From a virus (lineage: Duplodnaviria; Heunggongvirae; Uroviricota; Caudoviricetes), in IMG/VR virus record IMGVR_UViG_2690316109_000014, positions 1 through 10,365 of that record: DNA of 10,365 nucleotides, one strand, 5' to 3'. Of the stretch, positions 3,001 through 6,000 are shown one piece after another. The position numbers were made by a program. The stretch's first letter is position 1. Each line of letters begins with the position of its first letter.

Positions 3001-6000
3001 TAGTCTAAAAACTAGTATTAAGACTATCACTTATTTAAGTGATACTGGTTGTCTGGAGATTCAGGGGGCCAGTCTACTTGCTTTCTTTCTGACTTGTGAA
3101 GAATAACTCGCGTATCATATTTTTATCACCACAGGAAGCTTTTCACTCTCCGAATGCCTGTGGTGTTTTCATATAAACTATCGAAAGTCAATATTATTTC
3201 ATTTAAAATATTTTAACTATCTTTTATAATGAAGTTTCCCTTTGAGGCGTCAAAAATACAATCTTCAGACTTTACAATCATTGATGCTGTTATTGGCTCC
3301 CTACTTAATGGATGATGCCCCCCATCATTAATTATACGAGAGAGAGCATTTTCATCATATAAACTACACACAGAGGATTCCTCGGAGTTTCTAAGAAAAA
3401 CACCACGCTCTGGAATTGCCAATGTAATCGGACACTGCAATGCCTCCGGTATACAGGATATATCCTCAGGAGAAACCGAAAAAGCACTTGAAGATAATCG
3501 AGTCGCTAACGATCCAAGATCGCCCTCATTACCATTCATCATGGTTTGCATTGTTTGTATCATATATCTGTCGAATACATCAAGAAATGAGCTTCCTCCA
3601 TTCAACCGACTCTCAATAACGTCAGCCAGACTGAGAACATCATCCAAAGCAGTATTATTAAGACCTGAATACAGCTCCCCCTGAACAGGATTAACAATAA
3701 AAGCGTCCATAGCACTCTGATAACGAACAGAAAGCTGCCTGTCTCCTATTATAATATTCCCTGTATCATTCGCTCTGGCTGCGTTTTGCAAAACTTCAAC
3801 ATCTTGTATTGACAATTGATTCTCGGACGACAAATAAAATGTAAATGGCATAACAAAACTCCCTGTTTTAATTTGAACTCCAGACTTAAATAGCTGTAAC
3901 ACACTTCTGTATTATATGTCAACACAAAAACCGGAGCCGGACTCCGGTTTTTGTGAAGCTGTCGGCTATTTCATTCCGCCAATATTTTCCCACCTCCCGT
4001 CAGCACGCAGGATTTGCAGCGGTCTTACCACGCACTGTATCTGCTTTTTATCCGCATCCAGTATCACCACCTGCGTGATTACCCTGTCCTGCTCCGGGAT
4101 AATGCCATTCTCATCGGACTCCAGAATGTCTGCCGGTCCCAGTCGCAGCTGTGCTGTAAGTAACTCCCCGTTTTCACGGTCATCATGCTTTCCGCAACCG
4201 CACAGACGCTGCATAAGTTTTTTTAGTACGTTCATGTCATTCTCCTGTTCTGCCTGTATCACTGCCCACTTCATCCAGCCCCTTAACATCCTGCCACGGC
4301 CCGTCACCAAACCTGACCTGCAAATGCTGAAACAGCCCCTGAACCTGTGTGGCATCTTTGGGGTCAAGAAAGGTCAGTCCGGTGATGAGTGCGCCATCTG
4401 TATCCGGGAACCAGCCATGGCTGTTTGTCTCAATAATGTTTCCCGGCCCCAGACGGAACCGTATTTGCGTCTCCCCCGGGTCGCCCTTCGGCCCCTGAGG
4501 TCCGGTTGCCCCTACCGGGCCAGCCACACCTGTTTCTCCTTTCGGTCCCTGTGGGCCTGCCGGGCCTGCCGCACCGGTATCTCCCTTTGGACCCTGTGGA
4601 CCTGCATTTCCCGTCAGACCGGTCTCTCCCCGCTCTCCCATGTCACCTTTCGGCCCCTGCGGGCCTGCCGGACCAGCATCACCTGCCGGTCCCCGTTCGC
4701 CGGTTGCCCCGACAGGGCCGGTGTCACCGCGCTCTCCCTTATCACCCTTCGGCCCCTGAGGACCCGCGGGCCCCTGTTCCCCCTTTGGCCCGGGAGGTCC
4801 CACCACGGTGGGGATTCGGTTTACGGCCTCTTCCGCCGCTATCCTGCTTTGTTCCGCTGACTGTGCGCTTTCTGCTGACTCCCGGGCTTTTTCTGTTGCG
4901 GTCGTTGCATCCCTGGCTGCATTACCGGCTGCACTTTCTGCCGTCTTTCTTGACAATTCAGCTTCTGCTGCACTTTGTGATGACTCACTGGCTTTTTGAG
5001 CGGCCGCAGAAGCCGAGGACGAGGACGCATCCTCTGACTGCTTTGCTGAGGCTGCACTTTCTGCCGCCTGCCGGGCTGACTCCGATGCCTCCCCTGCTGA
5101 AGTGTCAGCATTTGCCGCGCTCTCTTCTGCCTGACTGGCTGATATGCCGGCATTCCTCGCTGACGTCTCCGCCTCTCCGGCATTCTTCTTCGCCTCCTCA
5201 GCGTGACGCGCCACCTCTTCCACCATCAGTTCAAAACGGCGCAGTGCCTCCGGCCGGACGTCATCCTCCGACATGGCTCCGAGAAAATCATTCAGCGTAC
5301 CGGGTCGGGAATCTTCATACACGGTGATGGTCCCAGCATGTGACGGCGGGAATCCTTCCACCAACAGAATAACGCTGTACTGACCGTACTCAACGTCCAT
5401 GCTGTAACGCCCGGCTTCATCCGGATTTTCTGAGGCCAGCGTGTTCACCACCACCGTGGTGCTGTTACGTTTTGCTTTCAGCTGGATTGTGCAGTTCTGT
5501 ACCGGTTTTCCTGTGCCGTCTTTCAGTACACCTGAAATCTTTACTGCCATATTCACCCCACAAAAAAGCCCGCCTGAACCGGCGGGCTGTCATAACACTG
5601 TGTTACCTGGCTAATCAGAATTTATAACCGACACCCACGATGAAACCGTCAGTGCGCCAGTCACCACTGCCGGAGCCTTCATAAGCAATATCAATGGCCA
5701 CGGATTCGGTCGGGTTAAACTGCACGCCAGCCCCCCACGCCAGAGACGTGTTGCTGTGGCGACCGTCATCACTTCCGGTCAGCACATCGTGCTTTTTCCC
5801 CTTGTTGTCAGTTACGCGAAGATAATCCCCGGAGAAAGTCGACACACGGCTGTAAGCTACACCCGCCATCGCATACGCGCTGAACCATTCATTTACGCGC
5901 ACAGACGGCCCCGCCATTACGCTGAACCAGCGGTTACGAACGGAATCTTCATGCCAGCGGGTATCGCTGTAACGGGTCAGCTGGCGATTCTTGTCTCCTG

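Follow-up and report, generated by a model that had tools for sequence, protein, structure and literature searches.

In phage lambda the gene tfa lies directly after the side tail fibre gene stf. Lambda Tfa, T4 gp38, Mu U and P2 G (Pfam PF02413, Caudo_TAP) are each encoded by a small gene immediately downstream of, and coupled to, a fibre gene, and are presumed to help the C-terminal region of that fibre; gp38 of T2/S16 and Tfa of Mu stay on the fibre tip. Prophages of enterohaemorrhagic Escherichia coli carry collagen-like fibres, EPclA and EPclB (PMC3368898), and the Phage_fiber_C domain (PfC) of EPclA acts as the trimerisation and collagen-nucleation domain by experiment (Ghosh et al. 2012, PMC3368898). 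Here we analyse a 10,365-nt stretch of a tailed-phage sequence (IMG/VR record IMGVR_UViG_2690316109_000014, positions 1 to 10,365; hereafter the window), which covers the tail end of a lambdoid prophage from E. coli of the attaching-effacing or Shiga-toxigenic type. An 89-codon open reading frame (ORF) located directly after its fibre gene, ORF89 (3966-4235, minus strand), codes for a stand-alone PfC protein that, to judge from its sequence, is an old duplicate of the C-terminal knob of the neighbouring fibre. We tentatively propose that this protein assists assembly of the knob without becoming a stoichiometric part of it.

The fibre gene stf (4237-5556, minus strand) encodes an N-terminal phage_tail_N domain (PfN; Pfam, 1e-68), a coiled coil, a Collagen region (4e-18) and a C-terminal Phage_fiber_C domain (1e-34). 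This architecture, together with the length of the protein, identifies Stf as the EPclA side tail fibre of PMC3368898. The true start of stf is likely the ATG at 5550, giving 437 aa; residue numbers are given here in the 439-aa numbering, in which PfC covers residues 365-428 (4273-4464, minus strand). The stf stop codon TGA (4239-4237) is separated by a single base, C (4236), from the ATG of ORF89 (4235-4233), which ends with TAG at 3968-3966 as the last gene of the tail operon. A Shine-Dalgarno (SD) sequence, AGGAG (4242-4246, minus strand), lies within the final stf codons, 6 nt before this ATG. The junction GCAGAACAGGAGAATGAC-ATG is unchanged in 44 of 47 loci, and the corresponding Salmonella modules carry GGAGG 7 nt ahead of the ATG of their small ORF. 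Beginning 11 nt past the ORF89 stop, a perfect 14-bp hairpin with A and T runs at its flanks (3923-3955; RNA fold of −24.2 kcal/mol, z of −5.2) is the terminator closing the tail operon; it is conserved across loci, prophage homology stops just past it and the cargo beyond is divergent. Similar hairpins follow the Salmonella small ORFs. The first-pass annotation had placed the ORF 1 nt past the stf stop, behind a good SD and in the slot that tfa occupies in lambda, and this placement holds in every respect.

ORF89 consists of two parts. Residues 1-28 (4152-4235) form an N-terminal extension, a basic helix (MxIxKK..L.G) plus a charged linker, where the fibre has its collagen shaft, and residues 29-89 (3969-4151) form a PfC-like beta domain that aligns with Stf residues 366-427. 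BLASTP of ORF89 residues 29-88 against Stf 366-427 gave 22 identities over 62 positions (35%), 63% positives and an E-value of 2e-11. The Smith-Waterman score of 103 exceeded those of all 2000 shuffled controls (27.5 ± 4.0, maximum 50; z of about 19). Matched independently to PF06820 (Phage_fiber_C, gathering score 25 bits), ORF89 28-89 scored 125.4 bits (1.1e-36, profile positions 1-64 of 64) and Stf 365-428 scored 119.2 bits (9.8e-35, the whole 64-position model). The likeness to the last 60 or so residues of Stf that had been noticed from the sequence is therefore genuine, down to the shared RLGP, I.E, G..P..D, LD, Q, LQ and DG.W positions. ORF89 is homologous to the EPclA and EPclB PfC (PMC3368898) over the entire 64-position model; it differs from that of EPclA in being a separate 89-aa chain, 35% identical, with a 28-residue helix and linker instead of the shaft, and in lacking the 11-residue C-terminal tail of the EPclA knob.

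No DNA-level repeat was found between the ORF89 and Stf PfC segments; their likeness is visible at the protein level alone, so the duplication is old. The small ORFs of E. coli and Salmonella are 49-52% identical, as against 38-40% for the fibre knobs between them, while each small protein shares merely 28-37% identity with its own neighbouring knob. Since the small ORFs are closer to each other than to the adjacent knob, the duplication predates the divergence of the modules, both copies having been kept since. A monomeric AlphaFold2 (AF2) model of ORF89 built from 17 sequences (mean predicted local distance difference test score, pLDDT, 72.8) shows a confident six-strand beta domain within residues 30-85 (pLDDT of about 87), preceded by a helix (residues 3-11) and a disordered charged linker (residues 12-28), both of low confidence. 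The fold-search matches of ORF89 were weak, and every one of them was a tail-fibre protein.

To ask how the gene evolves, we compared 80 related IMG/VR loci. A pattern search recovered 61 copies, each of them intact and 89 aa long. Among 62 distinct haplotypes, the ratio of nonsynonymous to synonymous polymorphism (pN/pS) was 0.127 for ORF89 overall, 0.063 for its PfC-like part and 0.27 for its N-terminal 28 codons. The fibre PfC gave 0.21 in the same comparison, so that the ORF89 domain is the more constrained of the two; these values are pairwise sums that are not phylogenetically independent, although their direction is unambiguous. The N-terminal motif MxIxKK..L.G is kept in the Salmonella homologues, in contrast to the Cys residues of this region. 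An A7 run (CTAAAAAAACTT; 4217-4223, minus strand) in codons 4-7 is an apparent slippage hot spot, and several database variants of ORF89 are frameshifted near it.

The gene itself is not new. ORF89 is already catalogued in Pfam, PHROG and RefSeq and by GenBank curators, and the idea of the first-pass annotation re-derives an existing one. The protein matches PHROG 576 at 8.5e-60, residues 1-89 on profile positions 1-89 of 89, and the members of this family in 933W, BP-4795 (ORF76), 434 (CPT_434B_24), AU6Stx1 (atfT) and phi24B ('gp59') are the same gene, 90-100% identical to ORF89, with the same position and junction and no material difference. The product is called 'phage tail fiber C-terminal domain-containing protein' by RefSeq and 'tail fiber assembly chaperone' by the curators of phage 434. 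In AU6Stx1 (KU977420) the gene is entered as 'atfT, alternate tail fiber tip'; the curators expect it to be fused to the fibre by a +1 frameshift and predict both a slippery site and a pseudoknot. Like 'tail fiber protein', these two curator names are guesses from position or homology. The EPclA paper (PMC3368898) does not mention the small gene, and a literature search by locus tag returned nothing functional on it.

The distribution of the gene follows that of the fibre knob. Searches by tblastn hit 296 phage records with the fibre PfC and likewise 296 with ORF89; the organism breakdowns matched, and the two were adjacent among the records listed in both searches. The pair occurs on four shafts: EPclA (siphoviruses, 434, BP-4795), EPclB (933W-type podoviruses) and two Salmonella fibres, namely a 468-aa PfN-Pf2-PfC fibre (L089) and a 212-aa non-collagen fibre (L082). 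With every shaft type, a terminator hairpin follows the small gene and type III effector cargo lies beyond. The fibre PfC, the small PfC protein and the terminator thus make up a mobile module that recombines onto different shafts. Exchange of the distal fibre end by recombination, which had been suspected from the window alone, is borne out by this series of shafts and by a truncated tfa (626-868) that persists downstream in the window. One E. coli prophage (L088, 2697-3246) contains stf, then a 92-aa chimera (P0127) and then a normal 89-aa copy; the chimera has its N-terminal half from the small ORF and its C-terminal half, with the tail, from the Stf knob. It is present in 2 samples, and the arrangement is the duplication product to be expected from unequal exchange between the two paralogous segments.

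Of 5426 complete E. coli genomes, 698 carry the ORF89 segment, at a median of 12 places per genome, and the gene is present in phages 933W, BP-4795, 1717 and 434. In a collection of 5.8 billion proteins the family was limited to E. coli, E. albertii, Citrobacter rodentium and Salmonella enterica. Searching 1.84 billion representatives exhaustively with HMMER yielded 57 matches, nearly all of them fragments or chimeras of the same family, and added no distant relatives. A scan of species-representative genomes returned only E. albertii and a 725-bp 'Xanthomonas pisi' contig (L083, NZ_JPLE01000138.1) with a 92%-identical copy, which is almost certainly E. coli contamination of that assembly. In a decayed C. 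rodentium remnant (L093) the fibre gene and the small ORF are both broken, the latter by A-run slippage (4960-5010, where a shortened A-run has cost the copy its original start). The joint decay of the two genes argues against a role of benefit to the lysogen that is independent of the phage.

We then considered how ORF89 is translated. Upstream of its ATG the reading frame continues for 46 codons without a stop (4236-4373, minus strand), overlapping the PfC of stf, and this open run is the source of 130-aa gene calls and of the 'frameshift' annotation. Within the overlap, pN/pS was 0.23 when read in the stf frame but 1.86 in the ORF89 frame. Synonymous resampling of the Stf sequence produced an equally long open run in 26% of cases (P = 0.26), and one of the 62 haplotypes has a stop inside it. 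We thus judge the overlap to be non-coding in the ORF89 frame. Stop codons close the frame 1 and 5 codons ahead of the ATG in the two Salmonella modules, which nevertheless keep GGAGG and ATG, and protein conservation between E. coli and Salmonella begins at Met1. Taken together, these observations support independent, coupled initiation, whereby ORF89 is translated from its own ATG in coupling with stf.

Peptides of the homologue have been recorded from purified virions of phi24B. In that dataset (preprint 10.64898/2026.04.10.717836) the peptides ADGTWENIGGMK and VITQVVILDADKK have 3 peptide-spectrum matches (PSMs) each, as against 2267 PSMs for the fibre gp61 and 47 for its C-terminal peptide. 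The authors listed the homologue peptides under a hypothetical fusion entry, with the remark 'Spike or just gp59?' (10.64898/2026.04.10.717836). Among the rows listed there is no junction peptide, and the fusion entry exceeds the fibre entry only in one low-molecular-weight gel slice (EA1829). After length normalisation, partly by our own arithmetic on the supplementary table, the homologue amounts to about 2% of the fibre. Two proteins that the authors took as contaminants, Lom and Q, have 23 and 19 PSMs, respectively (10.64898/2026.04.10.717836). As far as the rows listed go, the spectra and the gel slice indicate that the homologue is translated, small and far below a 1:1 ratio with the fibre. 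Virion proteomics, which had been put forward as a check, thus finds the protein in this related phage at trace level.

The function of ORF89 must concern the fibre knob or the ligand of the knob. A cytoplasmic, late protein whose synthesis is coupled one-to-one to that of the fibre, which is nearly absent from virions and is more conserved than the knob itself, is best explained as a transient accessory. We therefore favour, as a tentative reading, that ORF89 is a non-stoichiometric accessory for assembly of the fibre knob that contacts the unassembled PfC transiently; its binding to the fibre PfC and its chaperone-like action are what we infer from the evidence above. Under this model, ORF89 would be made beside each finished Stf chain by translational coupling and would engage the unassembled PfC transiently through PfC-PfC contacts. 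In this way the chains would stay soluble and aligned with one another until the trimer forms from three of them and nucleates the collagen helix; most of the ORF89 would then be released, with traces staying on virions. The place of the gene in the operon, last before the terminator and in the tfa slot, and the name given by the curators of phage 434 are in line with a helper. The isolated EPclA PfC showed no detectable expression unless fused to thioredoxin (PMC3368898), which is compatible with a domain that benefits from help.

Several observations weigh against an assembly helper. Recombinant EPclA over-expressed alone in E. coli forms trimers with a folded collagen helix, and PfC alone is trimeric both as a thioredoxin fusion and after removal of the tag (PMC3368898); ORF89 therefore cannot be strictly required for trimerisation. 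ORF89 bears no likeness to known fibre chaperones and has no Caudo_TAP match (E ≤ 0.1), the sole match to this family in the window being the remnant at 626-868. The AF2 monomer model gives no hint of partner binding, and the proteomic data, in the rows listed, come from a different phage, a podovirus with EPclB, and consist of few spectra.

The comparison with the Tfa proteins is instructive in this regard. ORF89 shares their genomic setting (1-nt spacing, SD in the end of stf, terminator after), a resemblance of position only, as there is no sequence relationship between them. Tfa shares no homology with the protein it serves, but ORF89 duplicates the very domain that would be its client, and the EPclA fibre can trimerise without its neighbour in vitro (PMC3368898). 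No Pfam match to the Peptidase_S74 intramolecular chaperone domain was found in Stf or ORF89. A more specific version of the assembly-helper reading, which we consider possible though doubtful, is that ORF89 is a 'client-mimic' chaperone that evolved by duplication of the domain it assembles, forming mixed PfC-PfC contacts and being displaced when the homotrimer closes. To our knowledge, such a client-derived principle has not been described for Tfa, gp38, gp57A or the S74 intramolecular chaperones.

It is also conceivable, albeit unlikely, that ORF89 is a structural tip accessory whose own trimer remains attached to the distal side of the knob, serving as cap, adaptor or adhesin. Homology to a proven trimerisation domain, a genomic slot like that of the tip-bound Tfa and gp38, weak fold matches that all fall on tail-fibre proteins, and the recovery of homologue peptides from gradient-purified phi24B virions (10.64898/2026.04.10.717836) are all consistent with such a role. 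Yet about 6 PSMs against 2267 for the fibre in the listed data, or roughly 2% after length normalisation and near the contaminant range, speak against a stoichiometric tip subunit. Stronger conservation than that of the knob, by pN/pS as well as by identity between E. coli and Salmonella, is unlike an exposed receptor-binding surface, and rotary-shadowed recombinant EPclA has a normal knob without ORF89 (PMC3368898).

We find it improbable that the free protein instead mimics the knob and, by binding the same ligand (a receptor or a site on the capsid), acts as its competitor or as a mask. Such a protein could, for instance, reduce the readsorption of progeny to debris or modulate how fibres dock. 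Homology to a putative receptor-binding knob, strict linkage to it, late low-level expression and the lack of any chaperone-family signature would all suit this role. However, with a charged N-terminus, Cys residues that are not conserved and neither signal peptide nor lipobox, the protein has no way of reaching the envelope before lysis; only small amounts seem to be present in the phi24B rows listed, no defence or exclusion family was matched, and none of our observations supports competition.

That ORF89 serves as an alternate tip, a programmed +1 frameshift producing a Stf fused to a second, different knob, seems very unlikely. ORF89 does lie in the +1 frame of stf, the frame is open for 46 codons upstream in 59 of 61 E. 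coli-type copies, the curators of AU6Stx1 predicted the slippery site and pseudoknot mentioned above, hypothetical fusion sequences were included in the mass spectrometry database of the phi24B authors (10.64898/2026.04.10.717836), and trace abundance in virions would suit a low-efficiency shift. Rare genomic fusions also exist: in two single-sequence cases (P0150 and P0153) a 1-nt indel joins the fibre and the small ORF. Against this, the overlap evolves as non-coding sequence, its openness is expected by chance and one haplotype is stopped; the frame is closed in the Salmonella modules, which keep their own SD and ATG. A shift in the open stretch before residue 428 would destroy the PfC of Stf. 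A rare shift exactly at GAA-UGA-C is conceivable, but inspection of the sequence revealed no re-pairing +1 site there; among the phi24B rows listed, there is no junction peptide, and the fusion entry leads only in the low-molecular-weight slice. The signs of programmed frameshifting, namely a constrained open overlap and a shift-prone site conserved across homologues, were not found for ORF89. In the lambda G/G-T pair, too, a tail gene ends in two frames that overlap, but stf/ORF89 differs from it in having no conserved slippery site or coding constraint in the overlap and in conserving an independent SD and ATG. In a further sequence (P0060; L087, 4-291), the fibre collagen runs straight into the ORF89 knob at a GPA common to both; a microhomology of 14 nt in the window (4130-4143 and 4683-4696) would allow such a join. 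The P0060 gene starts 3 nt from the end of its contig, within repeated collagen sequence, so that it is not reliable and may be an artefact of assembly.

The view of ORF89 as a spare or relic tip cassette left by recombination and without present function, which the first-pass annotation had raised and to which the recombination hot spots at tail-fibre ends, the tfa remnant downstream and the P0127 chimera could be thought to point, is effectively excluded by strong purifying selection (pN/pS of 0.13, and 0.06 in the domain), by the intact state of all copies examined in functional phages, by the conserved SD and ATG, by retention in divergent Salmonella modules, by translation, by decay only together with the fibre in C. 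rodentium and by the absence of inversion signals. A spare receptor-binding tip in particular fails for want of a mechanism: there is no invertase, inverted repeats are absent, the orientation is that of stf, and fusion by frameshifting is unsupported.

Three other identities were tried and rejected. An invertible cassette was discarded because the only recombinase in the window is that of IS2, no inverted repeats flank the ORF, and its orientation is the same as that of stf. The Mu Gin S/S', P1 Cin and e14 Pin systems likewise have a second tip-like segment beside a fibre gene; ORF89 differs from them in having its own start codon, the same orientation, no invertase and no flanking inverted repeats. 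A lipoprotein of the Cor or T5 Llp type, or a metal site, as read from an LCGCG motif, was rejected since the protein lacks a hydrophobic h-region (MNVLKKLMQRLCGCGKHDD) and conservation does not extend to the Cys residues, Cys14 being replaced by His or Tyr in E. coli alleles and the Salmonella protein P0152 having no N-terminal Cys. Finally, a defence or exclusion protein found no match in PADLOC-DB (E ≤ 0.1) or NCBIfam.

All phage genes of the tail block, from I to the truncated tfa, lie on the minus strand of the window. Upstream of stf are tail gene I (9843-10256), J (6285-9782) and lom (5615-6214). A strong, terminator-like hairpin lies on the coding strand between lom and stf (5567-5588, minus strand; 8 bp, 7 of them GC, followed by a T-run), and to be expressed stf and ORF89 presumably require Q-mediated antitermination of the late transcript. 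Beyond the hairpin downstream of ORF89 lies the effector gene nleG (3213-3902, minus strand), followed by a complete IS2 (1757-3030, minus strand; TnpA 2620-3030, TnpB 1757-2662) inserted between nleG and a 257-aa ORF (965-1738, minus strand); close relatives without the IS2 exist (H130). The 257-aa ORF, which lies among the effector cargo, matched neither Pfam nor NCBIfam and is labelled hypothetical in RefSeq; given its neighbours nleG and IS2, it may be an uncharacterised type III effector.

The truncated tfa (626-868, minus strand; 80 aa), about 3 kb beyond ORF89, is named 'tail fiber assembly protein' in RefSeq and matches Caudo_TAP at 6.8e-33 over profile positions 56-130 of 131. Its appearance is that of a stranded remnant, the 3' end of an ancestral stf-tfa pair of the lambda type; the PfC module and effector cargo now lie between it and the fibre gene. 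A dinI-like gene (262-510, plus strand) follows past it. In the Salmonella prophage with the PfN-Pf2-PfC fibre (L089, 205-729 and 5193-6551), a Cu/Zn superoxide dismutase gene is located beside J, a GDSL-lipase gene just upstream of the fibre gene and a SopA/NleL-like effector gene downstream.

The small PfC gene sits in hundreds of Shiga toxin (Stx)-converting and effector-carrying prophages. Whether its product acts as a helper, a tip subunit or a fusion partner bears on the host range and spread of Stx phages, as well as on the engineering of collagen-like fibres.

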